Source: Acidimicrobiales bacterium
GTDB lineage: Bacteria > Actinomycetota > Acidimicrobiia > Acidimicrobiales > Iamiaceae
NCBI GenBank assembly: GCA_035630295.1
Contig: DASQKY010000030.1
Location: 1,426-65,425 of the forward strand
Length of the DNA stretch: 64,000 nucleotides
Direction of reading: 5' to 3'
Part shown: positions 3,623-52,825 of the stretch, piece after piece
Position numbering within the stretch: the first letter of the stretch is position 1
Layout: the number at the start of each line of letters is the position of its first letter
Position numbers and translations under genes: made by a program
The notes under the pieces: model-generated
What the model saw: only the letters and a program-made list of their open reading frames with translations
Database searches by the model: none
Told to the model about the DNA's origin: nothing

Positions 3623-5248
3623 CTACAGGTCGGGCAGGCGCTGCGGCAGGCCGACCAGGGGCCGGAGCGGGTCCCCGGTGGTGGCCAGGCGATCGAGCAC
3701 GGTGCGCACCGTCCACCGGTCGGGGGCGAGGTCGGGGTCGTCCAGCTCCTCCCAGGCGATGGGCACCGAGACCGGCGCGCCCGGGGCGGGGCGGGTGGTG
3801 AACGGCGCCACCAGCGTCTTGTTGATGGCGTTCTGGGTGTAGTCGAGGCGGGCCAGCCCGCCCCGGTCGCGCTTGGTCCAGGCCCAGCTCACCATCTCGG
3901 GCACCACCTTCCCCACCGCCCGCGAGATGGTCTCCACCCACCCCCGGGTGTCGTCGAAGGACGGCCCGGGCGCCACCGGGATCCAGATCTGGATGCCCCG
4001 CTTGCCGGTGACCTTGGCCCCGGCCTGCACGCCGACGCGGTCGAGGGCCACCTTGTGCAGGCGGGCCAGGACGATCACGTCGTCGAAGGTGCTCTTGGGC
4101 CCGGGGTCGAGGTCGATCAGCGCCCAGGTGGGCTGGCGCCAGGCCGAGGCCGGCGACGTCCAGGGGCTGAGCTCGAGGGCCGCGTAGTTGGCCAGCCAGG
4201 CCAGGGCGGGCGGGCTGTCGGCCACGATGTAGGTCTGGGTATCGCCCGGATCCGCGTCCGGGTAGGTCCACCGGGTGATCCACGACGGCGCGTGCGACGG
4301 GGCTTCCTTGTGCCAGAAGCCCGGGCGTTCGACCCCGTCGGGGAAGCGGAGGGTGTTCACGGGCCGGTCGTAGAGGTACGGCAGCAGGGCCGGGGCCACG
4401 CGGGCGTGGTAGCGGATCACGTCGCGCTTGGTCACCGCCTCGCCGCCCTCCCGCCCCGGGAACAGCACCTTGTCCAGGTTGGTGAGCTTGAGGGTCCGGC
4501 CCTGCAGCTCCCACTCGCCCTTGGCCCCCAGCGCGTCGAGGGCGGCCAGCTCGTCGGGGGTGGGCGGGTCCCACGTGGGGATCTCGGGCCGGGCCCCGTC
4601 CGCCATCGCCTCGTCGCCGGGCCCGGCCCCCCCGGTGACCAGGCCCTCGGTCGAGGACCAGGTGGCGTCGCCGGCGGCCCGCACCTCGTCGTTGGTGCGG
4701 CCGGTCTTGACCGAGGTGGGGTGGTCCTCGGCGTCCCAGCCGGCCACGGCGTGGTCGTCGTGCTTGTGGAGGAGCAGCCAGTCGTCGCCCCCGCCCTTGC
4801 GCACGAAGACGAAGCGCCCGGCCAACCGCTCCCCGGCCAGGTCGACGTGCAGGTCGCCACCCTCGACCGCGGCCAGCGGGTCGTCACCCTTCGCCAGCGA
4901 CCACGTGCCCCAGTCCCAGACGATGACGTCGCCCCCGCCGTACTCGCCGCGGGGGATGGTGCCCTCGAAGTCGAAGTAGTCGAGTGGGTGGTCCTCGACG
5001 TGCACGGCCAACCGGCGGGCGTCGGGGTCCAGGGTGGGACCCTTGGGGACGGCCCAGCTGACCAGGACCCCGCCCATCTCCAGCCGGACGTCGTAGTGCA
5101 GGCGCCGGGCTCGGTGGCGCTGGACGACGAAGCGGTGGCCGTCCCCGGCCGGCGGCGGGCCGGCGCCCGCCGGCTCCGCCGTGACCGAGAAGTCCCGCTT
5201 GTCCCGGTAGCGCCGGAGCCGGTCCTCGTCCGGGGGGGTCATGCCCAC
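3623..5248 (-). CDS. LigD-type 3'-phosphoesterase + primase/polymerase fusion, no ligase domain
   Basis: N-terminal YRDKRDF..TAEP, FVVQRH.ARRLHYD.RLE, SWAVPKGP, VEDHP (PE domain). C-terminal LTNLDKVLFP, DLDP, TGKRGIQ, DYTQN, APFTTR (POL domain). Start is 5248 or 5242. Confidence 0.85.
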   Translation of the reverse strand: MGMTPPDEDRLRRYRDKRDFSVTAEPAGAGPPPAGDGHRFVVQRHRARRLHYDVRLEMGGVLVSWAVPKGPTLDPDARRLAVHVEDHPLDYFDFEGTIPRGEYGGGDVIVWDWGTWSLAKGDDPLAAVEGGDLHVDLAGERLAGRFVFVRKGGGDDWLLLHKHDDHAVAGWDAEDHPTSVKTGRTNDEVRAAGDATWSSTEGLVTGGAGPGDEAMADGARPEIPTWDPPTPDELAALDALGAKGEWELQGRTLKLTNLDKVLFPGREGGEAVTKRDVIRYHARVAPALLPYLYDRPVNTLRFPDGVERPGFWHKEAPSHAPSWITRWTYPDADPGDTQTYIVADSPPALAWLANYAALELSPWTSPASAWRQPTWALIDLDPGPKSTFDDVIVLARLHKVALDRVGVQAGAKVTGKRGIQIWIPVAPGPSFDDTRGWVETISRAVGKVVPEMVSWAWTKRDRGGLARLDYTQNAINKTLVAPFTTRPAPGAPVSVPIAWEELDDPDLAPDRWTVRTVLDRLATTGDPLRPLVGLPQRLPDL

Positions 5249-5280: not shown

Positions 5281-5901
5281 TCAGGAGCCGGTGACCTGGT
5301 CCTTGGCCCCCTGGGCCCGCTCGGTGACCTGCTGCTGGGCCTCCTGGGCCCGCTCGGTGACCTGCTGCTGGGCCTCCTGGGCCTGGTCGCGCACCTCGGA
5401 CATGGCCTCGGTGGCGGCCTCGCGCGCCGCGCCGGCCACCTCCTGCCCCATGGCGGTGGCCTGTTCCTGGAGGGGATCCAGGACCTTGCCGGCCACCTCG
5501 ACCTCCTCCCGAGTGGGCGGGGCCATCGACCCGACCAGGACGCCGAGGCCGAAGGCCACGGCTCCCGCGGCCAGGGGGTTGCCCTCGGTGCCCTGCCGGA
5601 TGCGGTCGGGCGCCTGGGCGACCTGGTCGCCGAGCGACGAGGCCGCCTCGGACACCGCCGAAGCCGCGCCGGACACCGTGGAGGTGGCACCCGAGACGCC
5701 CGAGCTGGCGGCGCCCACCGCCTGGCGTGGGGGCCCCATGACCTGGTGGCGGACACGGGTGGAGACTCGACGCACCTTGTCCATGCGGCGACCCACCACC
5801 CGCCCGGGACTGACCCGGTCGCCGATGGCGTCGACCGTGCCCGTCATGCGGGCCCGGGTCTGCTCGATGTCGTGCCTCAACTCCGTCGTTCGCTCAGCCA
5901 C
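5281..5901 (-). CDS. DUF3618 domain protein with ElaB/YqjD-like membrane segment and 11-mer repeats
   Basis: GTG 5901. LRHDIEQTRARMTGTVDAIGDRVSP (DUF3618) and NPLAAGAVAFGLGVLVG. Start overlaps the upstream gene's end. Confidence 0.8.
   Translation of the reverse strand: MAERTTELRHDIEQTRARMTGTVDAIGDRVSPGRVVGRRMDKVRRVSTRVRHQVMGPPRQAVGAASSGVSGATSTVSGAASAVSEAASSLGDQVAQAPDRIRQGTEGNPLAAGAVAFGLGVLVGSMAPPTREEVEVAGKVLDPLQEQATAMGQEVAGAAREAATEAMSEVRDQAQEAQQQVTERAQEAQQQVTERAQGAKDQVTGS
5311..5383. repeat. Perfect 33-bp tandem repeat (about 2.2 copies) encoding QEAQQQVTERA
   Basis: ctgggcccgctcggtgacctgctgctgggcctc at 5311-5343 and 5344-5376, plus a partial copy to 5383. Confidence 0.95.
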
Positions 5902-6275
5902 TGCGCGTCCTCCTTGAGGGTCTGGATGGTCTGCTCCGGCGCCGGGTCCAGCGCCTTCGCCTCGGCCCGTCCCCGCTGGGCGAGGACGGCGGCCGCCGCG
6001 CCGAGCACGGCCGTGACGATCAGGAAGGCCAGCCACGTGGGCATGACCTCGTCCAGGGCGAAGCCCAGGGTCAGCACCAGGCCGATGCCGGCCAGCAGGG
6101 CGACGACGGCCGCGGCCCCGAAGGCCGCTCCCGCCCGCCCGGCCTTGCGGCCCTCGATCTTGAGCTCCTCCTTGGCCAGGTCGACCTCCTGGCGGAAGAG
6201 CGTGGACAGCTCCTGGCTCAGCTCGCCGAGCAGCTCGGGGAGCGAGCGTTCGGGGCGCAGCGGCTCGTCGCTCAT
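5877..6275 (-). CDS. Actinobacterial phage-holin-like (Phage_holin_3_6/YqjE-like) membrane protein
   Basis: SLPELLGELSQELSTLFRQEVDLAKEELK, two TM helices, PEQTIQTLKEDAQWL tail. ATG overlaps the upstream TGA. Confidence 0.8.
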   Translation of the reverse strand: MSDEPLRPERSLPELLGELSQELSTLFRQEVDLAKEELKIEGRKAGRAGAAFGAAAVVALLAGIGLVLTLGFALDEVMPTWLAFLIVTAVLGAAAAVLAQRGRAEAKALDPAPEQTIQTLKEDAQWLSERRS

Positions 6276-6919
6276 GCGCCACCCACCCATCCGGCGGTGG
6301 AGCCGCCGGGATCGGTGCCGGGCATGGCCGGGGGCGGCGGCGGCGACGGGACCGGCGGAGGCAGCGGCGCGGCGGGCGCCGGCATGCCGGCCGCCGGGGT
6401 GGGGGTGACAGCACCGTTGCCGTTGCCGTCGCCCTCGTCGGATCGGGCCTCTCGGCCGGCCCGGGCTAGCCGGCCCACCAGCACGCCGGCGGCGGCGGCC
6501 CCGGCCAGGAAGACCACCGGCCGGCGGCGGGCCATGTCACCGACCTCCTGCACGACGCCCTGGACGCCCATCTCCTCGGCCCGGTCGGCCATCCGGCCCA
6601 GGTGCTCGCTGGCCTGCCGGGCCAGGTCTCGGGTCCGGCCGGCATCGTCGGGCCGGCCGTCGCACAGGGCCTCCAGCTCGTTGGCCGTGCCCCGGGCCGC
6701 ACCGGCCAGGTCGCGCAGGCGCTGCTCGAGCTGGTCGCGCACCTCGCCGGTGGCGGAGTCGAGGACGCCGCGGGCCTGCTCCACGGCTTGGCCGCCCACG
6801 GAGGCGGCCTGCTCGGCGGCGGTGCCCATCACCTCCCGGGCCTGCTCGGCGGCGGTGGAGGCCACCTGCCGGCCCTCGTCGGCGGCGGTGCGCATCGTGT
6901 CGGTCGTCGTGTCGGTCAT
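6272..6919 (-). CDS. ElaB/DUF883-like stress protein with 11-mer repeats
   Basis: GAGGAG RBS, ATG 6919. C-terminal ARRRPVVFLAGAAAAGVLVGRL anchor. Confidence 0.7.
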   Translation of the reverse strand: MTDTTTDTMRTAADEGRQVASTAAEQAREVMGTAAEQAASVGGQAVEQARGVLDSATGEVRDQLEQRLRDLAGAARGTANELEALCDGRPDDAGRTRDLARQASEHLGRMADRAEEMGVQGVVQEVGDMARRRPVVFLAGAAAAGVLVGRLARAGREARSDEGDGNGNGAVTPTPAAGMPAPAAPLPPPVPSPPPPPAMPGTDPGGSTAGWVGGA

Positions 6920-6970
6920 CGGGGCTCCTCGTCGGATGGCTGACGTGGTCGCTGCGGTCGTGGGGCCCGA

Positions 6971-6997
6971 CTGCCCGCGGCCCCAGGCGGTGAAACG
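6971..6997 (-). promoter_or_regulatory. Putative SigB/SigF-type promoter (CGTTT-N16-GGGCAG)
   Basis: About 50 nt upstream of ATG 6919; heads the 6919-3623 minus-strand unit. Confidence 0.6.
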
Positions 6998-7390
6998 TGC
7001 GCCGCCGAGCACGATGCGACGTCAGCGGAGCGGTTGGACCCGCCGATCGCGCTGCTTCAGCAACAAGTGGACCGATCACTAACCGCAAACATCCTTACGC
7101 CTCTTGACCAACCACGAGCCGTGGGACTTGACGCACTAGATGTTGCCGTCTTCACCACATCTCAACATTTTCCCCCTTCGCGCACGGGTCGCAAGGGCGG
7201 TTGTGGTTGCTTCGCCCCCAACGACTTCTCGCCGGACGCCCCACATCCGTTGCGGCCAGAACCTGCGAGCACCGACGAGATCTTTGGCGGCGACACCGAG
7301 ACACTTGCGTATCGAGTCACCACTCAAACGTCGGAGAAACGACAACACAACAACGTCATCTGCAACATCATCGAAGTGGAGGGACCAAAG

Positions 7391-8209
7391 GTGATCGAGA
7401 CGTCACGCTACTCATGGGAGGGCGCTGAGGAGGTCGAGGGTCTCCGCGAGCTCAAACGATCAGTGGACGAGAACCGCAAGAGGATCCTCGCTCACCCCAT
7501 CTACAACGAGCTGGACACCGTTGCGGATCTTCGCATCTTCATGAGCTACCACGTCTTCGCGGTGTGGGACTTCATGTCTCTGCTGACCGCCCTCCAACGG
7601 CGGTTCACGTGCGTCGACATCCCCTGGCGACCACGAGGTGCGCACCTGGCCCGCCGCCTGGTCAACGAGATCAAGCTGGTCGAGGAGAGCGACGGCATCG
7701 ACGGTGAGTACGTCAGCCACTTCGAGCTCTACCTCGATGCCATGGACGACATCGGGGCCGACACCACCACCATCCGGACCTTCCTGGACCGCATCGAAGC
7801 CGGTGTCGACGTGCCCGAAGCCCTGCGCCAGGCGGAAGTCCCCGAGGCCGTGGCCAGCTTCGTGGGCACGACGTGGGACGTGGTGCAGACGGCACCGGAT
7901 CACGTGATCTCGGCCATGTTCGCCCTCACCCGGGAGGACCTCATCCCCGACATGTTCGAGCGGGTGGTGGCCGGTGCCGCGCACGAGGACAGCCTGGCCA
8001 AGTTCCTCACCTACCTGCACCGGCACATCACCGTGGACGCCGAGGAGCACACCCCCATGGCCATGGCCCTGCTCCAGAGCCTGTGCACCGACGACGAGCA
8101 CTGGAACGAGTGCGAGAAGGCCAGCGGCCGCTGCCTGGACGAGCGGCTGAACCTCTGGACCGCCGTCCACGACGCCATCGTCACGGAACGAGAGCTGGTG
8201 GCCCCATGA
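7391..8209 (+). CDS. DUF3050 heme-oxygenase-like diiron oxidase (HDO)
   Basis: HPIY..L....DL.IFM.YHVFAVWDFMSLL.ALQ...TCV..PW.P, NEI.L.EESD, SHFELYLDAM, REDLIP.MF, YL.RHI.VDAEEH.PMA. GTG 7391 follows GGAGGGA; the ORF caller extends the frame to TTG 7034. Confidence 0.85.
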   Translation: MIETSRYSWEGAEEVEGLRELKRSVDENRKRILAHPIYNELDTVADLRIFMSYHVFAVWDFMSLLTALQRRFTCVDIPWRPRGAHLARRLVNEIKLVEESDGIDGEYVSHFELYLDAMDDIGADTTTIRTFLDRIEAGVDVPEALRQAEVPEAVASFVGTTWDVVQTAPDHVISAMFALTREDLIPDMFERVVAGAAHEDSLAKFLTYLHRHITVDAEEHTPMAMALLQSLCTDDEHWNECEKASGRCLDERLNLWTAVHDAIVTERELVAP

Positions 8210-9348
8210 CCATGACGCAGAAGCTCATCATCGACGGCCTGCTGGTCGTCGGGTTCGGGGTCCAGCACTCCATCCTCGCCTCCCTACGGGTGAAGCGGGT
8301 GGTGAAGGCCAAGACCCGCATGGAGGCCCTGGCCTGGCGGTCGGTCGAGTCCCTCACCAACGCCGTGTACATCCTGGCCGCCGCCGCCCTGTGGCAGCGG
8401 ACCGGCGACGTAGTCTGGGCCTTCTCGGGCACCGCCATGGTGGCCGTGGGCGCCGTGGCCGTCGTGTCCTGGCTCTGGTACTGGCAGCTCCACCTGTTCG
8501 AGGCCGACTGCGGCCTCGCCTTCGGAGCCACCACCCTGGTGGCCCACATCGCCCGGACGGAGCAACCCAAGTCGGTGCCGTGGGCGGTGGGGAGCCGGCG
8601 GTGGATCCGGTTCCCGGTCCACACCGCCTTCTTCGGGATGTTCTTCTTCCTGCCCACGATGACGGCGGACCTGCTGGTCCTGGCCATCATGGCCAACCTC
8701 TACAACATCATCGGCAGCATCCTGTACGACAACCGGCTCAAGACCCTGGCCGGCGAGAGCTACATGCGCTACGTGAACGTCACGGGGCTCATGTTCCCGC
8801 CCGTCTACCGGGCCCCGCGGGGGGCCAAGGGCATGGACATGCCCGGCCCCCACCACTGGCGCCGGCCGCTGGTGCACACGTCCGGCGTCGTCGCCGGGTT
8901 GGGCATCGGCCTGCTGTACCTGGCCATCATCGGCCCCCGGGCCACCTCCGGCCGGGACATGCTCGTGGCCGGCCTCACCGCCGTGCTGGCTGCGGTCCTG
9001 GTCGGGGTCGTCCTGGGCAACCTCCGGAAGCCCGACCGCACCGTGGACTGGCACCAGCAGCAGACCGACCTGGCCACCACCATCTCGCTGGCCTCGGCCC
9101 TCGGCGTCGTCAGCTGGGCCGGGTTCGGCTGGATCAGCTCCGGGCAGGCCCCGTACTTCGCCGCCTTCCTCCCGCTGTGGTTCATGGTCCAGTACCTCGG
9201 GCACGTGATCGCCTTCCTGGCCGCCCGCCAGAAGTGGTCGGCGGACGTGGTGCCCCTCGAGGTCCCGGCGGATGCGCCTGCGCGGGAACCCGCCCTGGTC
9301 GGCCTGGCCGAGCCGGCCGCGGCCCGGGGCAGCCTCTCCGCCTCCTGA
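8206..9348 (+). CDS. MddA/NURIM/ICMT-like membrane methyltransferase homolog with extra C-terminal TM domain
   Basis: ATGA overlap with the DUF3050 gene. FGVQHSILA, W.....VW, IRFP (RHP-like), PTMTAD.L, G..Y..Y...T.LMFP; about 4 further TM helices. Confidence 0.55.
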   Translation: MTMTQKLIIDGLLVVGFGVQHSILASLRVKRVVKAKTRMEALAWRSVESLTNAVYILAAAALWQRTGDVVWAFSGTAMVAVGAVAVVSWLWYWQLHLFEADCGLAFGATTLVAHIARTEQPKSVPWAVGSRRWIRFPVHTAFFGMFFFLPTMTADLLVLAIMANLYNIIGSILYDNRLKTLAGESYMRYVNVTGLMFPPVYRAPRGAKGMDMPGPHHWRRPLVHTSGVVAGLGIGLLYLAIIGPRATSGRDMLVAGLTAVLAAVLVGVVLGNLRKPDRTVDWHQQQTDLATTISLASALGVVSWAGFGWISSGQAPYFAAFLPLWFMVQYLGHVIAFLAARQKWSADVVPLEVPADAPAREPALVGLAEPAAARGSLSAS

Positions 9349-9355
9349 GCGCCAC

Positions 9356-9382
9356 GCCCGTCGTCGGGGGGCGACGACGGGC
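9356..9382 (+). terminator. GC-rich hairpin after the methyltransferase-like gene
   Basis: gcccgtcgtcg-ggggg-cgacgacgggc, an 11-bp perfect stem 8 nt after the stop; no U-tract. Confidence 0.6.
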
Positions 9383-9409
9383 ACCGGCCGCCGCCCGGGG
9401 CGTCACCTC

Positions 9410-9435
9410 CGTTTCCCCTGCCCCCTTGGGGGCGA
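9410..9435 (+). promoter_or_regulatory. Putative SigB/SigF-type promoter of DUF72 gene (CGTTT-N15-GGGCGA)
   Basis: Matches the island motif with a variant -10. Confidence 0.4.
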
Positions 9436-9489
9436 GTGGGCGAAGGTGACGCCTCAGGACGGCCGCCGCGACGCCACCCGGCCCGGCCC

Positions 9490-10254
9490 GTGAGAACGGG
9501 ACCGGGCCGGGCCCGCGTCGGCTGCTCGGGCTGGGTGTACCGCGACTGGCGGGGCCCGGTGTACCCGGCCGACCTGCCCCAGCGGGCGTGGTTCGCCTGG
9601 TACGCCGAGGCCTTCGACACCGTCGAGCTCAACAGCACCCACTACCGGCTGCCGGCGCTGTCGACCGTGCAGGGGTGGGCCGCCCAGGCCCCACCCGGCT
9701 TCTGCTACGCGGTGAAGGTCGGGCGCTACGGCACCCACCGCAAGAAGCTCCGCGACGCAGCCGTGTGGCTGCCCAACCACCTCGACCGGGTGGCTGCCCT
9801 CGGCCCCCACCTGGGGCCCCAGCTGGTCCAGCTGCCACCGCGGTGGCGCCGGGACGTGGGCCGCCTCGACGAGCTGCTGGCGGAGGCGCCTGGCGACCTG
9901 CGGTGGGCCGTCGAGGTGCGGGACCCGTCGTGGTTCCACGACGACGTCCTCACCTGCCTGCAGCGCCACGGCGCCGCCCTCTGCCTGCACGACCTCCTGG
10001 CCGGCCACCCGTGGGAGCTGACCACCGACTGGACCTACGTACGCTTCCACGGGCCCCGAGCCGTCGACGAGCCCTACCGGGGCCGGTACGGCGGGCGCCG
10101 GTTGTGGCGGGCCGCTGACCGGTTGGGCGCCTGGCAGGCCTCCGGCACCGACGTGTTCGCCTACTTCAACAACGACTACGAGGGCCACGCCGTGACCGAT
10201 GCCCGCTGGCTGCGGGAGCGCCTGGCCGGGTCCCGGGCCGGAACCGCGTCCTGA
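9490..10254 (+). CDS. DUF72 family protein
   Basis: VGCSGW.Y..W.G..YP, FDTVELNST.Y.LP, FCYAVK, LGPQLVQLPP, AVEVR..SW, YVRFHG, YFNND..GHA..DA. Start 9490 preferred over 9436. Confidence 0.9.
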   Translation: MRTGPGRARVGCSGWVYRDWRGPVYPADLPQRAWFAWYAEAFDTVELNSTHYRLPALSTVQGWAAQAPPGFCYAVKVGRYGTHRKKLRDAAVWLPNHLDRVAALGPHLGPQLVQLPPRWRRDVGRLDELLAEAPGDLRWAVEVRDPSWFHDDVLTCLQRHGAALCLHDLLAGHPWELTTDWTYVRFHGPRAVDEPYRGRYGGRRLWRAADRLGAWQASGTDVFAYFNNDYEGHAVTDARWLRERLAGSRAGTAS

Positions 10255-10276
10255 GCGCCCGGTCGGCGGACAGGGG

Positions 10277-10507
10277 TCAGGCGCCGTCCCGGCGGGTCGG
10301 GCCGACCGGGTCCTCGGCGTCGGGTCCCGCCGGGCGGTCCGTGGTGGCGTAGAAGCGCTCCGAGGCGGTGTCGCGGCCGGAGGCGTCGGCCGGATCGTCG
10401 TGCCCGGCGGTCTGCTCCGGATGGTTGACGTGGCGCGCCAGCCAGACCGACGCCGCCACCACCAGCATCACCACCAGGGCCACGAGGAGGCCCTCGGCCC
10501 CGCCCAT
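10277..10507 (-). CDS. Small single-TM protein with acidic tail
   Basis: TGATG overlap with the upstream STAS-like gene. MGGAEGLLVALVVMLVVAASVWLARH followed by a D/E/P-rich tail. Confidence 0.55.
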   Translation of the reverse strand: MGGAEGLLVALVVMLVVAASVWLARHVNHPEQTAGHDDPADASGRDTASERFYATTDRPAGPDAEDPVGPTRRDGA

Positions 10508-10887
10508 CAGGCCGGAGCCGTCGGGGAGAGGGCGGCGGCCGGCACCGGGGCCGGAGCAGGGGCGGCCGGACGGGGGGCCCGGGCCGCCCAGGGCAGCACC
10601 ACCGCCACCTCGGGCGGGAGGAACCGGCGTAGGAGCTGGCGCCCGCTGAGCCGGGAGCAGGCCACCTCCACCTCGGCCCCGGCCGCCGAGGCCACAGCCA
10701 CCAGGCGGGCCACCCGGACCATCTCGGCCGGTACCATGGTGAGGCCGCTCACATCCAGCGTGACCACGGCGTGGCCCACCACCACGGACGACAGCTCCAC
10801 GCCTCGTCGGGCCCACTCGGCCTCGTCGGCGGCGCCGTCGATGGCCACGTGCAAAGCGGCGCCCCGCGAGATGAGCTGGTCGACCAC
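10507..10887 (-). CDS. Divergent STAS (anti-anti-sigma-like) protein
   Basis: AGGAGG RBS. VVTLDVSGLTMV (cf. V.lDls.v.f.DS), AAGAEVEVAC, RQLLR; the phosphoacceptor DS is absent. Confidence 0.5.
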   Translation of the reverse strand: MVDQLISRGAALHVAIDGAADEAEWARRGVELSSVVVGHAVVTLDVSGLTMVPAEMVRVARLVAVASAAGAEVEVACSRLSGRQLLRRFLPPEVAVVLPWAARAPRPAAPAPAPVPAAALSPTAPA

Positions 10888-10915
10888 GGGCCCTCCTGGT
10901 GTCGTGCGGGCCTCC

Positions 10916-10942
10916 CTGCCCGCCCGGCGCAGGAGTGAAACC
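10916..10942 (-). promoter_or_regulatory. Putative SigB/SigF-type promoter (GGTTT-N16-GGGCAG)
   Basis: About 30 nt upstream of GTG 10887. Confidence 0.65.
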
Positions 10943-10956
10943 TCGGCGACCGGCGA

Positions 10957-11502
10957 TCAGGAGGCGCGGCGGACCGCGGCCCGCAGCTCCCGGGCAAAGG
11001 CCTCGGGGTCCTCGACCGTCACCGTCACCGCCGGGTGGCGCAGGAGGTTGGACGGCAGCAGGACGGGGACCCGGCGCCGGAAGCGGACGCAGGCCCCGGC
11101 CCGGGTGGAGGTGGCGAAGGTGAGGCCCCCGTCGGACAGGGACAGGTGGGGCGGGCCGGCCACCTTGAGCCAGCTGTAGGGCCCGGTGACGGTCACCTCG
11201 TCCACGTTGGCCAGGGGCGTGCGCAGCGACCAGGGCCCGAAGCGGACACGGAGGTCCTCCTCCCCCACCACCACCTCGGCGGTTCGGGGCATCACCCCCA
11301 CCGCCAGGGCCGGCACCACCATGGAGCGCTCGAAGTGGAACGGGAACCGGGTGGTCCGGGGGATCGAGGCCGCCGGCCGGGGCGGGGGCCCGCTCGGCTT
11401 GTCCTGTTCGACCTCGGGGTGGTGGCCGGGCCGGTTGGCCTCCGGCACCGGGCCCGCGGACTCGTCCGCACCGCTGCGGGTGCTCGGGGAGCGGGGGGGC
11501 AT
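10957..11502 (-). CDS. Conserved actinobacterial hypothetical protein (beta-rich)
   Basis: GGAGGA RBS before ATG 11502. RFPFHF...VRFGPW...TPLANV...GPY.W...GP.LS..D.GLTF.T....G.CV.F, with good GC3 bias. Confidence 0.6.
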   Translation of the reverse strand: MPPRSPSTRSGADESAGPVPEANRPGHHPEVEQDKPSGPPPRPAASIPRTTRFPFHFERSMVVPALAVGVMPRTAEVVVGEEDLRVRFGPWSLRTPLANVDEVTVTGPYSWLKVAGPPHLSLSDGGLTFATSTRAGACVRFRRRVPVLLPSNLLRHPAVTVTVEDPEAFARELRAAVRRAS

Positions 11503-11537
11503 GCGTGTCCTCCGTTGGGTGGGGGTGGTCGGGGTGG

Positions 11538-12722
11538 TCAGGGCTGGAAGACGACCTTCACGACCCCGTCCTCCTTGGCCTGGAACCGGGCGTAGGCGTC
11601 CGGCGCCTCGTCCAGGCCCAGGTGGTGGGTGGCGAAGCCGTCGACCCCGAGCGGGTCGTCGTCGCCTTCCAGGAGCGGCAGGATGTCGTCGACCCAGCGG
11701 CGGACGTTGGCCTGGCCCATCCGCAGCTGCACCTGCTTGTCGAACATGGTCAGCATGGGCAGCGGGTCGGCCATGCCGCCGTACACCCCGGTCAGGGAGA
11801 TGGTGCCGCCCCGCCGCACCGCGTCGATGGCGGTGTGGAGGGCGGCCAGCCGATCCACCCCGGCCGTGGTCATGAGCCGCTCGGCCAGGGCGTCGGGCAG
11901 GAGGGACGTGAGCTTGTGGGCCGCGTGAGCGCCCGGGGAGCCGTGCGCCTCCATCCCCACCGCGTCGATGACGGCGTCGGCACCCCGGCCCCCGGTCAGC
12001 TCTCGGATGGCCTCGCCGATGTCGTCGTGGTCCTCGAGGCGCAGGGCGGTGACGCCCCGATCCGCCGCCCGGGCCACCCGGTCCCCCTCGACGTCGACGC
12101 CGATGACCTGCTCGATGCCGAGGTGGCGGGCCACCCGCGCCGCCATGTCGCCGATGGGGCCCAGGCCCAGCACGACCAGGCTGTCACCCGGGGCCACCCC
12201 GGCGTAGGCCACGGCCTGCCAGGCCGTGGGCAGCACGTCCGAGAGGTACAGGTAGCGGTCGTCCGGGGGCCCGTGAGGCACCTTGACCGGGCCGTACTGG
12301 GCCTGCGGCACCCGGAGGTACTCGGCCTGGGCTCCGGGGACCTGGCCGTAGAGCTTGGTGTAGCCGAACAGGGCGGCGCCCATCCCGTGCTCGCGGACCT
12401 GGGTGGTCTCGCACTGGGTCTGGAGGTCCTGGGTGCACATGGCGCAGGTGCCGCAGGCGATCTGGAAGGGGATCACCACCCGGTCGCCGGGGGCCAGGTG
12501 GGTCACCTCCGGCCCCACCGCCTCCACGATGCCCATGGGCTCGTGGCCCAGCACGTCGCCCTCGGTCATGAAGGGGGCCATGACCTCGTAGAGGTGCAGG
12601 TCCGACCCGCACAGCCCGCTCGAGGTGATGCGCACGACGGCGTCGGTGGGCTCCTCGATGGTCGGGTCGGGCACCTCCTCGACCCGTACGTCCTTCGGGC
12701 CCTGCCAGGTCACTGCTCTCAT
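11538..12722 (-). CDS. Zinc-dependent alcohol dehydrogenase (glutathione-independent formaldehyde dehydrogenase-like)
   Basis: MRAVTWQG, CGSDLH, GHEPMG, CGTC.MC...C, GQAEYLRVP, LSDVLPT, GLGPIG, DAVIDAVG. GGAGGAG RBS. Confidence 0.92.
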   Translation of the reverse strand: MRAVTWQGPKDVRVEEVPDPTIEEPTDAVVRITSSGLCGSDLHLYEVMAPFMTEGDVLGHEPMGIVEAVGPEVTHLAPGDRVVIPFQIACGTCAMCTQDLQTQCETTQVREHGMGAALFGYTKLYGQVPGAQAEYLRVPQAQYGPVKVPHGPPDDRYLYLSDVLPTAWQAVAYAGVAPGDSLVVLGLGPIGDMAARVARHLGIEQVIGVDVEGDRVARAADRGVTALRLEDHDDIGEAIRELTGGRGADAVIDAVGMEAHGSPGAHAAHKLTSLLPDALAERLMTTAGVDRLAALHTAIDAVRRGGTISLTGVYGGMADPLPMLTMFDKQVQLRMGQANVRRWVDDILPLLEGDDDPLGVDGFATHHLGLDEAPDAYARFQAKEDGVVKVVFQP

Positions 12723-12778
12723 GGCGCTCCTCCGATCGGTCGAGGCCCGACCGCGACGGCGCGCCCGGGTCCCGCGGG

Positions 12779-12804
12779 CTGCCCGCGCTCCCCGGCGGCG
12801 AAAC
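12779..12804 (-). promoter_or_regulatory. Putative SigB/SigF-type promoter (GGTTT-N15-GGGCAG)
   Basis: About 55 nt upstream of the ADH start. Confidence 0.65.
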
Positions 12805-12838
12805 CGGCCGGCCGCGGGCTGCTCGGCCGGCGGGCCGC

Positions 12839-13033
12839 TCACCCGCTGGGGGCCGCCCCCTCCATGGGGTCGTCGCCCGCCGGCGGGAGGCCCGGCTCGT
12901 CGCCGTCGCCGTCGGTGTCGCCGGACTCCGGCTCGGTCTCGGCGTCGGCCCCGTCGGCCAGGAGCCCATCGCCCTCGGCCGGACCCTGGTCGCGGGTGTC
13001 GTCGCCGCGGGACGGCTGGCCGTGGGGATCCAT
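12839..13033 (-). CDS. Small acidic, probably disordered protein (64 aa)
   Basis: GGAG RBS, 10 nt after the upstream stop. D/E/G/P-rich with no hydrophobic core. Confidence 0.5.
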   Translation of the reverse strand: MDPHGQPSRGDDTRDQGPAEGDGLLADGADAETEPESGDTDGDGDEPGLPPAGDDPMEGAAPSG

Positions 13034-13042
13034 GGGCTGCTC

Positions 13043-13690
13043 CTATCGGGACCGACGCCGGGGCTCGACGTCGCGTTCGCGGGCGAAGTTGCGGCCCAGC
13101 TCCTCGGCGATGCCGCCCTCGGAGCTGGCCTCCTCGGTGATCACCGGCCCGATGGGCTCGCCGTCGGCGCCCAGGCGATCGAGCCGGAGCGGTTCGGCCT
13201 CGACCATGACCGCCTCCACCTCCGGCGCCCACCGAGACACCCGCACGACCTGGCCCCGCTGGGCGGCCGAGGGCACGTCCTGGTTCTTCACGGCCATGGC
13301 CGGCAGCACGATGACGGCGATGGTGCCGCCCACCGCGCCCCCGCACAGGGCGCAGATGAGCAGCCGGAGCCAGAGGGGGATGTCGTCGGGCAACAGGACA
13401 GCCACGGGCAGGGCCACGACCACGCCGATGGCGGTCAGGATCGGGCCGAGCAGGCTGGTGGCCTTGGTGGCCTCCTTCGAGTACAGGATGCCGGCCTGCG
13501 GCATCACCATGCTCTCGGTGGCCTCCTCCCGCATCTCGGCCCGCAGCGAGGTGCGCTCGTCCTGCCCGGCGTCGGTGCGGATCTCCTGGTCGCGCACCCC
13601 GACGTGGGCCAGCCGGCGGCGGAGGTCCGGCACCCGGTCGGGGGCGTACACACCGAGCAGGGCGTGGGCCGGCGTCTGCTGATCACTCAT
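13043..13690 (-). CDS. Two-TM stress membrane protein (YflT-like N-terminus)
   Basis: ATG 13690. LLGVYA...LRRRLAHVGV...I, two TM helices with a GGAVGG glycine zipper. Confidence 0.55.
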   Translation of the reverse strand: MSDQQTPAHALLGVYAPDRVPDLRRRLAHVGVRDQEIRTDAGQDERTSLRAEMREEATESMVMPQAGILYSKEATKATSLLGPILTAIGVVVALPVAVLLPDDIPLWLRLLICALCGGAVGGTIAVIVLPAMAVKNQDVPSAAQRGQVVRVSRWAPEVEAVMVEAEPLRLDRLGADGEPIGPVITEEASSEGGIAEELGRNFARERDVEPRRRSR

Positions 13691-13699
13691 GGCCGCCCC

Positions 13700-13724
13700 C
13701 TCCCCCGGCCCCCGGGGGGCAACC
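13700..13724 (-). promoter_or_regulatory. Putative SigB/SigF-type promoter (GGTTG-N14-GGGGAG)
   Basis: Ends 10 nt above ATG 13690, implying a near-leaderless mRNA. Confidence 0.45.
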
Positions 13725-13763
13725 ACATCCCGTCCGGCGCCCGGCGCCCCGGCCGCCTACCGT

Positions 13764-14098: not shown

Positions 14099-14124
14099 GG
14101 TTTGGCATCGGCGGTCGGGGGGAG
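14099..14124 (+). promoter_or_regulatory. Putative SigB/SigF-type promoter (GGTTT-N15-GGGGAG)
   Basis: About 35 nt upstream of GTG 14159. Confidence 0.6.
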
Positions 14125-14158
14125 CCGCACCCCACCCCCGCCGCCCCCAGGAGGCACC

Positions 14159-15682
14159 GTGCAGGAGACCGTGCCAGGCCCCCCCGGCGGCCCGTGGACC
14201 CAGCCGGCGGCCCGCTACCCGGCCCTGTCGGGCCCGGCCCGCGCCGACGTCGTGGTGGTCGGGGGTGGCATCGCCGGCCTGACCACCGCCGTGCTGCTGG
14301 CCCGGGCCGGGGCCCGTGTGCGGGTCCTGGAAGCCGGCGCCGTCGGGCAGGGGACCACCGGGGGCAGCACGGCCAAGGTGACGGCCCTGCAGGCCCGCCG
14401 CCTGTCCCATCTGCGCGAGGTGCACGGCGACGCCGTGCTGGCCCCCTACGTGGAGGCCCAGCTGGCCGGCCAGCGCTGGATCGAGGCCCGGGCCGGGGAA
14501 CGGGACGTGGCCTGCGGCCTGGAGCGCCTGCCGGCCTCCACCTACGTCACCGACCCCGAGCGGGTGGGCTCCATCGACGACGAGGCCGAGGCGGCCCGTC
14601 TGGCCGGCCTGCCCGTCGAGGTGGTCGACGACGACCCCGACCTGCCCTTCGCCACCGCCCGGGCCGTGCGCCTGGCCGACCAGCTCCAGGTCGACCCCCG
14701 GGCCTGGGTCGCCGACCTGGCCGCCGAGGTGGCGGCCCAGCCCGGGTGCGCCGTGCACGAGGGCAGCCGCGTGGTCGACGTGGCCGCCGGCCACCGCTCG
14801 GTGGCCACCGAGGACGGGCGGGTCGAGGCCGGCCACGTGGTCCTGGCCACGCTCCTGCCCATCAGCGACCGGGGGCTGCTCTTCGCCCGCACCGAGCCGA
14901 CCATGTCCTACGGCCTGGCCCTGGAGGTGGCCGGCTCACGGCCGCCGGTCATGGCCTACGGGGCCGACCGCTCCACCCGCTCGCTGCGCCCGGCCCGGAT
15001 CGGCGAGGGCCCGGTGCTGCTGGTCGGGGGTGAGGGCCATCCGGTGGGCCGGGGCCGGGGGACCGAGCAGCAGAGCCGGCTGCTGGAGTGGGCCCGGTCC
15101 CACTTCGAGGTCACCGCCGTGCGCCACCGGTGGGCCGCCCACGACCTGCAGAGCACCGACCTGCTCCCCTTCGCAGGCCGGGCCGACCGGCTGCCCGGGA
15201 GCCCCTGGGTGGCCTCCGGCTTCGGCAAGTGGGGCCTCACCAACGGCACGGCGGCGGCCATGACCATCGCCGGCCGCATCACCGAGCCCTCCGGCGACGG
15301 GCGGGCCTGGGACGCGCTCTTCGACCCCCGGCGCTCCCACCCCCTGGCCGGCTACCGCTCGGCCGCCCGGCACAACGCCGGGGTCGCCGCGCAGATGGCC
15401 CGGGGGTGGGCCTCGGCCGGCTCGGCCACCACCGCCCGGGGGCCGGAGGTCACCCGCCAGGGCCTGGTCCCGACGGCCGCCGGACCGGGGGGCTGCCGCC
15501 TGTCGCTGGCCTGCACCCACCAGCGGGGCATCGTCCGCTGGAACGAGGCCGAGCGCACCTGGGACTGCCCGCTTCACGGCTCGCGCTTCGCCGAGGACGG
15601 CTCGGTGGTGGCCGCCCCCGCCCGCCGCCCCCTCCGCCGCGTCGAAGGTCCCTCCGACGGGGACGACGACGGAGCTGGTTGA
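14159..15682 (+). CDS. FAD-dependent oxidoreductase with C-terminal Rieske domain (YhfW/PuuB-like)
   Basis: AGGAGG RBS. VVVVGGGIAGLTTA, GTTGGSTAK, SGFGKWGLTNGT, CTH...WDCPLHGSRF. Confidence 0.9.
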   Translation: MQETVPGPPGGPWTQPAARYPALSGPARADVVVVGGGIAGLTTAVLLARAGARVRVLEAGAVGQGTTGGSTAKVTALQARRLSHLREVHGDAVLAPYVEAQLAGQRWIEARAGERDVACGLERLPASTYVTDPERVGSIDDEAEAARLAGLPVEVVDDDPDLPFATARAVRLADQLQVDPRAWVADLAAEVAAQPGCAVHEGSRVVDVAAGHRSVATEDGRVEAGHVVLATLLPISDRGLLFARTEPTMSYGLALEVAGSRPPVMAYGADRSTRSLRPARIGEGPVLLVGGEGHPVGRGRGTEQQSRLLEWARSHFEVTAVRHRWAAHDLQSTDLLPFAGRADRLPGSPWVASGFGKWGLTNGTAAAMTIAGRITEPSGDGRAWDALFDPRRSHPLAGYRSAARHNAGVAAQMARGWASAGSATTARGPEVTRQGLVPTAAGPGGCRLSLACTHQRGIVRWNEAERTWDCPLHGSRFAEDGSVVAAPARRPLRRVEGPSDGDDDGAG

Positions 15683-52700: not shown

Positions 52701-52825
52701 CCGCACAGCACCACCAGGGGCAGCAGCGGCGCCCCGCCGGTGAGGCGGGCCCGCAGCCACCCGGCCGCGCCGGCCTCGGCGTCGGCGTCGGCTTCGTCGA
52801 CCGTCACCACGTCCGCCTCGGTCAC
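49781..52825 (-). CDS. Fusion protein: MFS transporter + LivF-like ATPase + LivG-like ATPase
   Basis: MFS motifs (DELDRSAF, LAD..., SLLAD.Y....R), then GTNGAGKST/LSGGQQQMLA/IDELSLGLAP/VEQ, then GPNGAGKTT/LSTGSRRIV/LLDEPSSG/VEH. One 1014-aa frame; GTGA overlap with the permease. Confidence 0.88.
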   Translation of the reverse strand: MTEADVVTVDEADADAEAGAAGWLRARLTGGAPLLPLVVLCGLNVADELDRSAFAVLLPDIRDHFGLDNSGILGLVAVATAAALLLTVPIANWADRSDRYRIALLGAGAWALFSVGTGVAFAAWFLVVVRCSSAVGNAAIFPTHNSLLADTYEPSVRPRIYSLHRSANAVGAIVGTVGAALLAQVGGWRTPFFVFALPTVVLVVVGLRLRDPGRGHFERAAMGADADLVGTDEPPPSFAEAYRMVWTIESLRRIFVALPFLAAAIAGLLAVSSIHYEQVFGLDEIERSWVAVPVYGAELAGLLVGARLGVRMLARGPRHVFRLISMAAWLSAALALAFAGAPTVALAVVANALLAACLVIVGPGVLSSLSLAIPPRARSVGFSIGALFVLPGLVVLPVIGWIGEVHGFRWGMAVLGPTFLVGGLLIARVGRVIDGDVHQVWAGAAARAELLRERRAGHQKLLLVRDLDVRYGDVRILFGVDLEVTEGEVVALLGTNGAGKSTLLNAISGVVPASRGAVIFDGRDITHAPPEEIAVLGIGQVPGGRGTFPGLTVAENLRVAAWSARDQRAEVQERLARVHEMFPVLRDRRDDPAADLSGGQQQMLALSMAFLTRPQLLAIDELSLGLAPVVVDQLLEVVRALRDEGTTILVVEQSVNVALAIADRAYFLEKGEVRFEGPTAELLDRPDVLRSVFLEGATRGLAAADGGANGDGPAPDGPDLEDRAPDGTAPVVAARPEGSGRGTATPALEAHGLGVRFGGVVAVDDVSLAVAPGEVLGVIGPNGAGKTTLFDLISGITPAAEGRVALDGVDVSGRSAAARARAGLGRSFQDSRLFPSLTVEEAVAVARERWVAVRDPLNAALRLPALVASEARVTAEVDELIELLGLGAFRSKFVGELSTGSRRIVDLACVLAHRPSVVLLDEPSSGIAQREAEALGPLLLRIRSTLGASLVVVEHDMGLIRSVSDRLLALDQGRVVTSGPPAEVLAHPEVVASYLGTGTAAARSGAAPDPAGAT

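Follow-up and report, generated by a model that had tools for sequence, protein, structure and literature searches.

A two-gene operon on the forward (+) strand of the window (the whole 64-kb stretch of DNA that was analysed), read from its sequence and open reading frames at positions 7391-9348, couples a DUF3050/HamA-type oxygenase (ORF1) translationally to a transmembrane protein of the AzpL diazotase family (ORF2), and the pair, which is met again in unrelated bacteria, is probably a module for N-N bond formation on a small amine by way of nitrous acid or nitrite. Natural diazo and diazeniumdiolate compounds such as DON (6-diazo-5-oxo-L-norleucine), azaserine, kinamycin, fragin and valdiazen are potent as drugs, toxins or signals, and to our knowledge only a small number of enzymes, themselves little understood, build the N-N bonds in them. 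AzpL, which uses nitrite to install the diazo group in DON, an antitumour amino acid, is the only ATP-independent diazotase of which we are aware. A first-pass annotation of the same DNA had described an inserted cassette in which a DUF3050 diiron oxidase was joined to a membrane methyltransferase; the cassette and the oxygenase family are confirmed below, and it is the identity of the membrane partner that changes.

Organization of the Locus

The start of ORF1 (272 amino acids, 7391-8209, +; assigned by Pfam and by alignment to HamA) is most likely the GTG at 7391, which follows by 7 nt a GGAGG Shine-Dalgarno sequence (7379-7383, +) that is kept in L031/L032, the close relative used for comparison. 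A longer form beginning at TTG 7034 would add 119 N-terminal residues that have no Pfam match, and it was rejected because homology to HamA begins at residue 18 of the 272-residue form and because the gene called in the relative likewise encodes 272 residues. ORF2 (380 amino acids, ATG start, 8206-9348, +; assigned by identity to AzpL) shares with the end of ORF1 an ATGA stop/start overlap at 8206-8209 (+), which is also present in L031 and which bears out the translational coupling claimed earlier. Eight nucleotides past the ORF2 stop lies the 11-bp GC-rich hairpin of the first-pass annotation (9356-9382, +), whose arms (9356-9366 and 9372-9382) are 100% complementary around a 5-nt loop. Base for base it is the same in L031, which is otherwise 84% identical and has differing flanks; it lacks a T-run, a consensus terminator scan gave nothing, and it is likely to be either a terminator or an mRNA-stabilising stem. 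A second inverted repeat (9394-9458, +), with both of its cores, GGCGTCACC ... GGTGACGCC, kept in L031, lies where the conserved block ends on the right.

Upstream of ORF1 is a leader or intergenic region of 378 nt (7013-7390, +), the long leader that had been attributed to the cassette. Its homology to L031 begins at 7167 and is confined to this close relative; the region upstream of the L038 locus is unrelated to it. Neither a consensus sigma-70 promoter nor a terminator was found when the leader was scanned, and a riboswitch or other structured RNA was considered and discarded, there being no Rfam match at E up to 1 and an MFE z-score of 0.16. As had been noticed, the DNA is AT-richer than its surroundings: leader, ORF1 and ORF2 have 58.5%, 65.4% and 70.8% GC, respectively, all below the 75.1% of the window, and the 11 segments of 300 nt with the lowest GC in the 64 kb all fall at 7001-7800. 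An accompanying claim of more A/T-ending codons holds for ORF1, whose GC3 of 0.893 compares with 0.965 +/- 0.020 in 38 host genes, none of which falls below 0.906 (z = -3.6), and climbs from 0.82 to 0.96 in the 5′ to 3′ direction, but not for ORF2, whose GC3 of 0.979 is host-like. The reduced total GC of ORF2 arises at the first and second codon positions, which is what a membrane protein would be expected to show.

The operon behaves as a discrete unit. A block of 2289 nt (7167-9455, +), carrying the same DUF3050 and AzpL-like pair, is common to the window and to L031/L032 at 84.4% nucleotide identity; the left neighbour in L031 is a different one (YcaQ-like, as judged by eye), and the right neighbour there aligns to positions 13047-13420 of the window, which carries an extra 3.6 kb at that place. 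A mobile element was also considered and rejected, as 7167-9455 is not flanked by terminal repeats, either direct or inverted. Purifying selection acts on both genes, dN/dS against L031 being 0.14 for ORF1 and 0.33 for ORF2 at a dS of about 0.4, and to judge from these ratios together with the kept overlap and hairpin, both are functional. In the window the operon has DUF3618, Holin-X and apolipoprotein-like genes plus LigD on its left and DUF72 on its right, and no biosynthetic genes were found among its annotated neighbours. The sequence itself was found in one run, of soil-metagenome DNA.

A HamA-Type Oxygenase

ORF1 matches Pfam PF11251 over profile positions 2-233 of 233 with an E-value of 9.4e-88 (294 bits against a cut-off of 22.2 bits), which agrees with the family named in the first-pass annotation and marks it as a haem-oxygenase-like iron oxygenase. 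By phmmer it is 38% identical to HamA (PDB 9VWB; E 2.3e-51), and in that alignment H40, E84, H96, R167, E168, H199, D203, E206, H207 and R240 of HamA are all identical in ORF1, the roles of these residues as iron ligands or proposed 2OG contacts being those given for HamA in PMC12522199. The motifs EESD, SHFE, REDL and RHITVDAEEH, read at first sight as an intact ligand set, are all present, as are six candidate His/carboxylate iron ligands, and the full HamA ligand set is kept; Glu184 of PMC12522199 has no corresponding Glu when positions are counted along the ORF1-9VWB alignment. The only solved DUF3050 structure, HamA 9VWB, contains one iron, with 1.5 Fe per protein by ICP-MS (PMC12522199), and HamA has been linked to the making of diazeniumdiolates (PMC12522199, PMC11705231). 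Relatives of ORF1 at 50-55% identity, its nearest large group, are found within hydrazino cassettes of the kinamycin type.

A Homologue of the AzpL Diazotase

Over 84-98% coverage, ORF2 is 61-65% identical to the AzpL proteins P0038 (WP_157538045.1) and P0010 (BCN13448.1), which come from Kitasatospora azatica and Streptacidiphilus/Peterkaempfera griseoplana, respectively (PMC11705231, PMC11973848). AzpL is an experimentally studied, nitrous-acid-dependent transmembrane diazotase (PMC11705231, PMC12207350) and is said to resemble no known enzyme (PMC12207350). In S. griseoplanus, an AzpL Y93A substitution abolishes N-acetyl-DON production (PMC11705231, citing Kawai 2021), and the equivalent of this essential residue in ORF2 is Tyr92 (codon at 8479-8481, +), in a column that is invariant in 95/95 AzpL-family members. 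Of the 104 columns with conservation of 90% or more in the family, ORF2 retains 99, the exceptions being Y100A, S108A, K127A, I196M and A294S. The first three put alanine, in the ORF2 lineage, at polar positions that are otherwise near-invariant, which might point to a new substrate or to altered activity. The host looks Iamia-like, and in a neighbour-joining tree ORF2 adjoins the Streptomyces/Kitasatospora AzpL clade, with the window/L031 pair on a long branch. On this sequence evidence ORF2 is a member of the AzpL (type II, ATP-independent) diazotase family. It is built in two parts, a remote NnrU/MddA-like domain at residues 1-198 and four helices at residues 221-339; the latter are long helices in the AlphaFold (AF2) model (pLDDT 84.6) and match the roughly four additional transmembrane helices of the earlier description.

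Gene Partners of AzpL and Recurrence of the Pairing

AzpK (or AzpK2), a lysine 5-hydroxylase, and the AzpJ-like SDR, a dehydrogenase, are the makers of 5-oxolysine, the known substrate of AzpL. Among 30 genome AzpL loci, 27 have a match to AzpJ and 25 to AzpK or AzpK2; in the 64-kb window AzpK, AzpK2 and AzpJ gave no tblastn match at E 1e-3, nor was an HDO-cupin (HDO, haem-oxygenase-like diiron oxidase) found elsewhere in it. With AzpK and AzpJ missing from the window, the substrate of ORF2 is perhaps made elsewhere in the genome.

A DUF3050 gene was present within 8 kb in 0/30 species-representative genome AzpL loci, and a pairing limited to the lineage of the window was entertained until metagenome loci and contigs of a deep-branching AzpL clade overturned it. 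In this separate clade, DUF3050 lies directly upstream of AzpL in L053 and L057 and 2.2 kb upstream in L058, and the two proteins co-diverge (56-70% and 54-63% identity). Against this clade the pair in the window is 41-44% identical in both proteins, and the pairing therefore looks to be of independent origin. The combination that the first-pass annotation had picked out is thus found in other genomes, at L031/L032, L053, L057 and L058. L057, like the window, has neither AzpK nor AzpJ within 7 kb; L053 combines DUF3050 with an AzpK-like gene, and L058 combines it with an AzpJ-like SDR and has no AzpK within 7 kb, so the role of the oxygenase does not seem uniform.

Other iron enzymes also accompany AzpL. 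HDO plus cupin genes occur at least at L019, L025, L028, L029, L042, L043, L059/L060 and L061, and AurF at L062. The eight HDO plus cupin loci also have an AzpJ-like SDR, and most have an AzpK or AzpK2 match. Most actinobacterial azp loci lack any HDO, which indicates that diazotisation does not in general require one. Members of the AzpL family in all other lineages lie in biosynthetic clusters whose further genes are of the GNAT, ATP-grasp, AMP-binding, carrier-protein or YcaO kind.

A Proposed N-N Bond-Forming Module

Here we infer chemistry, substrate and the part played by the oxygenase. In the mechanism that we favour, ORF2 would N-nitrosate or diazotise an amine at a site built around Tyr92, and the ORF1 oxygenase would supply an oxidised partner. 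Our first preference for ORF1 is N-oxygenation, which would yield nitrogen at the level of nitrite or NO, or else an N-hydroxylated amine, and the latter would give a diazeniumdiolate on nitrosation. Our second preference is C-oxidation to an alpha-amino-ketone substrate, in place of AzpK plus AzpJ, and our third is tailoring of the diazo product.

A bolder version may be put forward only tentatively, and we think it less likely than the general proposal: DUF3050 and an AzpL-type protein could form a self-sufficient two-enzyme N-N bond module that has arisen at least twice, with the oxygenase making the oxidised nitrogen (either an N-hydroxylamine or nitrogen at the level of nitrite/NO). This nitrogen would then be joined by the membrane enzyme to an amine of primary metabolism, e.g., the alpha-amino ketones 5-aminolevulinate or aminoacetone, to give a new diazo or diazeniumdiolate metabolite from two genes alone. 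Were this true, DUF3050 would for the first time have a general function, valid in ham/pvf/mgo and kinamycin-type clusters alike, and the scheme would explain the source of nitrogen oxide for DON-type diazotisation in the absence of CreD/CreE. Apart from that version, the locus physically links the DUF3050 and AzpL families, with two apparently independent origins and with two-gene forms that lack AzpK/AzpJ, and it brings out the partner of the iron N-oxygenase type (DUF3050, HDO plus cupin, or AurF) that is usual in AzpL clusters other than those of the Streptomyces type. It further anchors the N-terminal half of AzpL in the NnrU/MddA/ICMT superfamily, offers a small and easily cloned system for the study of DUF3050 function and of the type II diazotase mechanism, and suggests that Acidimicrobiia probably make a new metabolite containing an N-N bond.

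Competing Explanations

The earlier model, in which a diiron oxidase acts with a SAM-dependent MddA/ICMT-like methyltransferase to give a small molecule or lipid that is both oxidised and methylated, had a genuine starting point, since residues 2-198 of ORF2 are remotely homologous to MddA (NF045656), the nearest relatives outside the AzpL family belong to Pfam NnrU and have weak ICMT, PEMT and DUF1295 matches, and the motifs GVQHS, IRFPVH, YDNRL and GESYMRY are all present as noted. It is the function that does not follow: the MddA match reaches 45.5 bits against an equivalog cut-off of 270 bits, and NF045656 weakly matches 20/20 AzpL-family members tested (best E 2e-20). Pfam ICMT (PF04140) and PEMT (PF04191) gave no match at E up to 1 to ORF2 or to 20/20 relatives, and a sequence-profile search of the PDB with ORF2 gave none. 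An ICMT-like fold was not recovered either, in that Foldseek searches of the PDB with the full ORF2 model and with its N-terminal 205 residues (pLDDT 79.2) returned nothing at E <0.4 and no ICMT entry for either model, although remote homology could hide a core shared by ORF2 and ICMT. The RHPxY and EE motifs of ICMT bind SAM, and their replacement in ORF2 (RHP by RFP, EE by YD) is common to the whole AzpL family, whose characterised members are diazotases (PMC11705231, PMC12207350). With methyltransferase function unsupported, the methylated product is unsupported as well, and this model, now largely refuted, is barely credible.

Among the explanations that accept ORF2 as an AzpL, a minimal DON pathway, in which the HDO would take L-lysine at C5 to 5-oxolysine and ORF2 would diazotise this to 6-diazo-5-oxo-L-norleucine so that two genes suffice, is unlikely, though less so than the others. 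Lysine derivatives are substrates of HDOs such as BesC, L058 offers a DUF3050 gene beside an AzpJ-like SDR with no AzpK nearby, the tree places the origin of ORF2 inside the true AzpL clade, and the lysine hydroxylase has already been swapped once, AzpK by AzpK2 (PMC11973848). Against it, L053 holds DUF3050 alongside its AzpK-like gene, the HDO plus cupin loci retain the AzpJ-like SDR and mostly AzpK/AzpK2 too, and Y100A, S108A and K127A, which lie close to the catalytic Tyr, hint at another substrate. We also know of no DUF3050 member that carries out carbon hydroxylation or a four-electron oxidation to a ketone. We would give still less weight to nitrosative-stress or nitrite detoxification, by which nitrous acid or NO would be consumed in nitrosating an abundant cellular amine with no dedicated product. 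The stress-type genes on the left (together with LigD), the lack of biosynthetic neighbours and the position of NnrU, a family that in denitrifiers is connected with the metabolism of nitrite and NO, as the Pfam family nearest to the ORF2 domain would all suit such a role; yet the AzpL family elsewhere is always in biosynthetic clusters, diazo products are reactive toxins and thus an odd end-point, and the left neighbour is not kept in L031. Equally improbable is an evolutionary remnant, a transferred AzpL gene that has lost AzpK/AzpJ and come to lie beside an unrelated DUF3050 gene with no joint function. The absence of AzpK/AzpJ from the window, the long branch to the window/L031 pair and the loss of three near-invariant residues are what a remnant might show, but purifying selection on both genes at the observed dS, conservation of overlap, Shine-Dalgarno sequence, leader and hairpin, and an equal adjacency that arose independently in another clade argue for a working pair. 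An N-N bond-forming module, its product a diazo or diazeniumdiolate compound, remains our preferred reading of the operon.

Comparison with Known Systems

Members of the MddA/NnrU/ICMT/PEMT clan have remote homology to the N-terminal ~200 residues of ORF2 and have QHS and G..Y..Y in common with it, whereas ORF2 differs from MddA/ICMT in having RFP for RHP, YD for EE and four added helices, and its characterised relatives carry out diazotisation rather than methyl transfer. Type I diazotases (CreM, CmaA6, AvaA6) convert an amine and nitrous acid to a diazo or diazonium group, the same reaction class as AzpL (PMC12207350), but they are ATP-dependent soluble enzymes of the ANL superfamily, unrelated to ORF2, and usually come with the nitrite-forming pair CreD/CreE, of which there was no hint among the annotated genes of the window.

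Several systems offer counterparts to ORF1. Like it, the SznF-type HDO-cupin N-oxygenases and N-nitrosating enzymes are HDO-fold iron oxygenases, in their case used for N-N bond chemistry; ORF1, in contrast, is of the DUF3050 subtype and has neither a cupin domain nor a cupin neighbour. The hydrazino cassettes of kinamycin and lomaiviticin include a DUF3050 member akin to ORF1 in the context of nitrite-dependent N-N bond formation (bioRxiv 10.1101/2025.05.27.656397), while the other cassette genes (an amidase, the glutamine-synthetase-like KinL, the ferredoxin KinI and the haem enzyme KinJ) were not found in the window. HamA (with its homologues PvfA and MgoB), an enzyme of the biosynthesis of the diazeniumdiolates fragin and valdiazen, belongs to the same Pfam family as ORF1, with ligands and 2OG contacts conserved, and its substrate is carrier-protein-bound (PMC12522199); no carrier protein was found among the annotated neighbours of the operon. 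The partners of HamA, namely an NRPS/carrier protein, a HamC-type N-oxygenase, the cupin HamB and the SnoaL-like HamE, are absent near ORF1, which, unlike HamA, is paired with a membrane diazotase homologue. For that homologue the comparison is with AzpL, which has the same length (~380 amino acids) and the same two-part architecture; AzpL has azpK/azpK2 and azpJ as partners and Streptomycetaceae as hosts, whereas ORF2 is coupled to a DUF3050 oxygenase in a host that looks Acidimicrobiia-like.

Architecture and Conservation of the Two-Gene Cassette

The gene for a HamA-type (DUF3050) oxygenase, ORF1, and that for an AzpL-family transmembrane protein, ORF2, form a compact unit that can be read from the sequence on the plus strand at 7013-9382. 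A leader of 378 nt (7013-7390), with the Shine-Dalgarno motif GGAGG at 7379-7383, precedes ORF1 (7391-8209; 272 aa from GTG 7391), which is joined through an ATGA overlap at 8206-8209 to ORF2 (8206-9348; 380 aa from ATG 8206), and a hairpin with a perfect 11-bp stem and a loop of 5 nt follows at 9356-9382. Mechanical calling had begun ORF1 at TTG 7034 to give 391 aa, a start that was rejected: the extra 119 residues match no family, similarity to HamA sets in at residue 18 of the shorter, 272-aa protein, and the orthologue in a metagenomic relative (L031/L032) is called at 272 aa.

This relative has the same gene pair, with 84.4% DNA identity across window positions 7167-9455 and protein identities of 89% for ORF1 and 82% for ORF2; the ATGA overlap, the Shine-Dalgarno motif and about 225 nt of the leader are kept, and every base of the hairpin is the same in L031. 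Measured against L031, dN/dS comes to 0.14 in ORF1 and 0.33 in ORF2 (dS ~0.4), so selection is maintaining the two genes. The flanks are another matter. On the left, L031 has a gene that was judged YcaQ-like by eye, from its translation, and the three minus-strand genes lying upstream of the cassette in the window (5281-7012; for a DUF3618 protein, for Holin-X (PF07332) and for an apolipoprotein-like repeat protein), presumably one of the “stress units” of the first-pass annotation, are not kept beside it. To the right, L031 continues directly into the counterpart of window gene 13043-13726, so the window carries an extra 3.6 kb (9456-13046; DUF72, two small ORFs without a family match and a Zn-dependent alcohol dehydrogenase) that is missing from L031, an indel immediately adjoining the cassette. 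A search for terminal repeats around the cassette found none. “Discrete cassette” is a fair label. The earlier observation of a two-gene cassette is confirmed, and its interpretation is supported in part: the DUF3050 assignment (Pfam E 9.4e-88), the coupling by the ATGA overlap and the cassette nature of the block all stand.

ORF2 as an AzpL Homologue

A database search with ORF2 returned about 100 clusters of full-length homologues. Two of these anchor the family: WP_157538045.1 (P0038), listed as Kitasatospora azatica AzpL in the review PMC11705231, and BCN13448.1 (P0010) of Peterkaempfera (formerly Streptacidiphilus) griseoplana, whose entry adjoins the AzpK BCN13447.1 named in PMC11973848. 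ORF2 is 61-65% identical to both and is, as judged from sequence, a member of the AzpL family. According to PMC11705231, AzpL is the transmembrane enzyme indicated for the conversion of 5-oxolysine and nitrous acid to DON (6-diazo-5-oxo-L-norleucine); the Y93A substitution abolished product formation. The essential tyrosine corresponds to Tyr92 of ORF2 and is invariant in an alignment of 95 sequences, in which ORF2 retains 99 of the 104 columns conserved at ≥90%. Near this residue the window and L031 share three polar-to-alanine changes, Y100A (99% of the remaining sequences have tyrosine here), S108A (96%) and K127A (90%), a hint that the substrate may not be 5-oxolysine.

The first-pass annotation had taken ORF2 for a membrane methyltransferase, and the remote homology to MddA on which that reading drew is real: the NCBIfam MddA model is matched weakly by ORF2 (residues 2-198) and by 20/20 AzpL-family members tested (best E 2e-20). 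Each specific test of methyltransferase membership fails. ORF2 scores 45.5 bits against the curated MddA cut-off of 270 bits and has no match in Pfam; none of the 20 family members matches Pfam ICMT or PEMT; a sequence-profile search finds no relatives in the PDB; Foldseek gave no ICMT-like match for the predicted model of full-length ORF2 (pLDDT 84.6) or of its N-terminal 205 residues (pLDDT 79.2); and the replacements of RHP by RFP and of EE by YD run throughout the AzpL family. The proposed methyltransferase function is not supported, and the proposed oxidised and methylated product falls with it; the extra transmembrane helices do appear in the model, as four long helices in C-terminal residues 221-339.

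When 1.8 billion representatives were searched by profile, only about 14 AzpL-like ones were recovered at E ≤1e-30 and, beyond those, about 1000 proteins of ~250 aa aligned to profile positions 5-200, a sample of which matches Pfam NnrU and, weakly, ICMT, PEMT and DUF1295. The closest non-AzpL relatives of ORF2 residues 1-198 (window 8206-8799) are such NnrU-matching proteins. In denitrifiers NnrU is associated with the metabolism of nitrite and NO; it is also linked to the haem-dependent isomerase Z-ISO. Since AzpL has been described as without similarity to known enzymes (PMC12207350), its link to NnrU may be unreported.

ORF1 as a HamA-Type Oxygenase

The family matched by ORF1, DUF3050, is renamed HamA_HO-like in newer Pfam releases, and ORF1 aligns to the crystal structure of HamA (9VWB) with E 2.3e-51 and 38% identity. 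Residues H40, E84, H96, R167, H199 and R240 of HamA, reported as iron ligands or 2-oxoglutarate contacts (PMC12522199), are all identical in ORF1, as are E168, D203, E206 and H207, so that the metal-ligand list drawn up on first reading is correct. The accompanying label “diiron” is unsettled, because HamA is reported to bind a single iron and 2-oxoglutarate (PMC12522199).

A DUF3050 homologue 65% identical to ORF1 (P0106) is encoded on a very short contig, about 520 nt downstream of a tRNA-Thr gene (L038:237-310). Four bases before the contig end it terminates with a GTGA stop/start overlap (GTG ACG CC..., L038:1640-1649), an arrangement that would fit a coupled downstream gene starting M-T like ORF2.

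Gene Neighbourhoods of AzpL Homologues

In a first set of 30 species-representative genome loci, an AzpJ-like SDR lies 3′ of the AzpL homologue in 27, and AzpK (~450 aa, no Pfam family) or the HalD-like AzpK2 is present in 25, a pattern that agrees with published DON gene sets (PMC11973848); DUF3050 occurs within 8 kb of the AzpL homologue in none of the 30. Neither AzpK, AzpK2 nor AzpJ is found anywhere in the 64-kb window, where the neighbours of the cassette are non-biosynthetic.

The gene pairing does recur, in L031/L032 and in three loci (L053, L057 and L058) from a deep-branching part of the AzpL family. L053 has DUF3050 (E 4.6e-80), AzpL 18 nt on and then an AzpK-like gene. In L057 (L057:4024-10300), DUF3050 is followed by AzpL with a ribosome-binding site, GAGGAGG, that overlies the upstream stop codon; AzpK and AzpJ are absent within 7 kb, and the flanks encode YcaO, a pair of alpha/beta hydrolases and a class-I aminoacyl-tRNA-synthetase-like protein of 717 aa. 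This locus may belong to a different small-molecule or peptide pathway. In L058, DUF3050 lies 2.2 kb 5′ of AzpL, which is followed by AzpJ-like SDR, GNAT-like, ThiF and MMPL genes, and AzpK was not found. The two proteins have diverged together across these loci (56-70% identity for DUF3050, 54-63% for AzpL). The counterparts of ORF1 and ORF2 there are only 41-44% identical to them, whereas ORF2 is nearer the Streptomyces AzpLs (64%) and ORF1 nearer cassette-type DUF3050 proteins (50-55%), so that the window pair looks like a second, independent union of the two families.

Elsewhere in the window, 14102-15682 encodes a 526-aa FAD-dependent oxidoreductase (DAO family) with a Rieske [2Fe-2S] domain at its C-terminus. 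A single 1014-aa ORF at 49781-52825, adjoining a 747-aa BPD_transp_2 permease ORF, combines an MFS_1 transporter domain with a pair of ABC_tran ATPase domains and, in addition, a branched-chain ABC C-terminal motif; this may be an unusual fusion or may have arisen artefactually from longest-ORF reading.

Base Composition and Origin

The claim of AT-richer DNA is borne out by a real dip in GC, from 75.1% in the window to 58.5% in the leader, 65.4% in ORF1 and 70.8% in ORF2, and the 11 lowest-GC 300-nt windows in the whole 64 kb all fall within 7001-7800. The related claim of more A/T-ending codons applies to ORF1 (GC3 0.893 versus 0.965 ± 0.020 in 38 host genes; z = -3.6) but not to ORF2, whose GC3 of 0.979 is host-like; codon positions 1 and 2 account for its lower total GC, as would be anticipated of a hydrophobic protein. 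Within ORF1, GC3 shows a steady rise, from 0.82 over the opening quarter to 0.96 over the closing one, and the low-GC leader extends the same gradient upstream; incomplete amelioration after transfer and selection for weak 5′ mRNA structure are both possibilities.

The window LigD (3623-5248; 3′-phosphoesterase and primase-polymerase domains) has its closest match in the LigD of Iamia sp. SCSIO 61187 (78% identity), with Acidimicrobiales and Aquihabitans as the next named matches, and from this one gene the source of the contig is probably an Iamiaceae-like acidimicrobial soil bacterium. In a neighbour-joining tree without bootstrap, the ORF2 pair of window and L031 forms a long branch beside the Streptomyces/Kitasatospora AzpL clade and apart from the AzpLs of Acidimicrobiales MAGs. 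Taken together, this placement and the affinity of LigD suggest transfer of the cassette into an Iamia-like host.

A Putative N-N Bond-Forming Module

In both families, the only members that have been studied act in nitrite-linked N-N bond formation. On this family chemistry, together with the translational coupling, the conservation and the repeated joining of the genes, we read the cassette as a putative N-N bond-forming module: by sequence, an AzpL-type diazotase homologue without AzpK or AzpJ, joined to a HamA-type oxygenase. The AzpL-like protein would nitrosate or diazotise an amine with nitrous acid, and ORF1 would furnish the oxidised partner, most plausibly by N-oxygenation, the chemistry known for HamA, for HDOs of the SznF type and for AurF. 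Nitrosation of an N-hydroxylamine would moreover give a diazeniumdiolate directly. N-oxygenation is also favoured since most HDO-partnered loci have AzpK or AzpK2 and an AzpJ-like gene as well, so that 5-oxolysine can apparently be made there without the HDO. That the HDO instead makes the keto-amine substrate is an alternative still alive, given that L058 has AzpJ without AzpK and that two-gene forms exist. Candidate substrates, by pure inference, would be alpha-amino ketones that occur ubiquitously, for example 5-aminolevulinate or aminoacetone. The two-gene system bears on DUF3050 function, on how type II diazotases work and on where their nitrogen comes from, and should be of interest to research on N-N bond biosynthesis.

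Comparison with Known Systems

DUF3050 appears repeatedly at likely sites of N-N bond making. Clusters that make diazeniumdiolates include HamA and PvfA/MgoB homologues, whose precise role is debated (PMC11705231, PMC11659414). Further AzpL loci have a Haem_oxygenas_2 protein (weak DUF3050 similarity) and a cupin, fused or as separate genes (L019:11982-13160, L025:13330-14637, L028:11746-12967, L029:12741-14006, L042, L043:2568-3742, L059:9824-11014 (L059/L060) and L061:1522-2775), and one (L062:9857-10699) has an AurF-type diiron N-oxygenase instead; Streptomyces-type azp loci are without DUF3050, HDO plus cupin or AurF. These HDO and cupin genes of AzpL/DON-type clusters of the non-Streptomyces type resemble SznF or HamA plus HamB, and they or AurF may supply the nitrogen oxide for diazotisation.

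Among homologues of ORF1, the closest large group (50-55% identity) has the order amidase, glutamine-synthetase-like, DUF3050, ferredoxin and 628-aa protein, as in Streptomyces sp. NBC_01551 (L039:4949-11053; also L036 and L037), where the genes adjoin aromatic-polyketide genes and run amidase, 62-aa ORF, glutamine-synthetase-like, DUF3050, 4Fe-4S ferredoxin and a 628-aa protein without a Pfam family. By gene order and Pfam families alone, this arrangement, whose DUF3050 member is given no role in the literature consulted, resembles the kinamycin-type hydrazino cassette (KinK, KinL, KinI, KinJ), in which the KinI/KinJ pair converts nitrite and aspartate to hydrazinosuccinate (bioRxiv 10.1101/2025.05.27.656397; PMC6133997).
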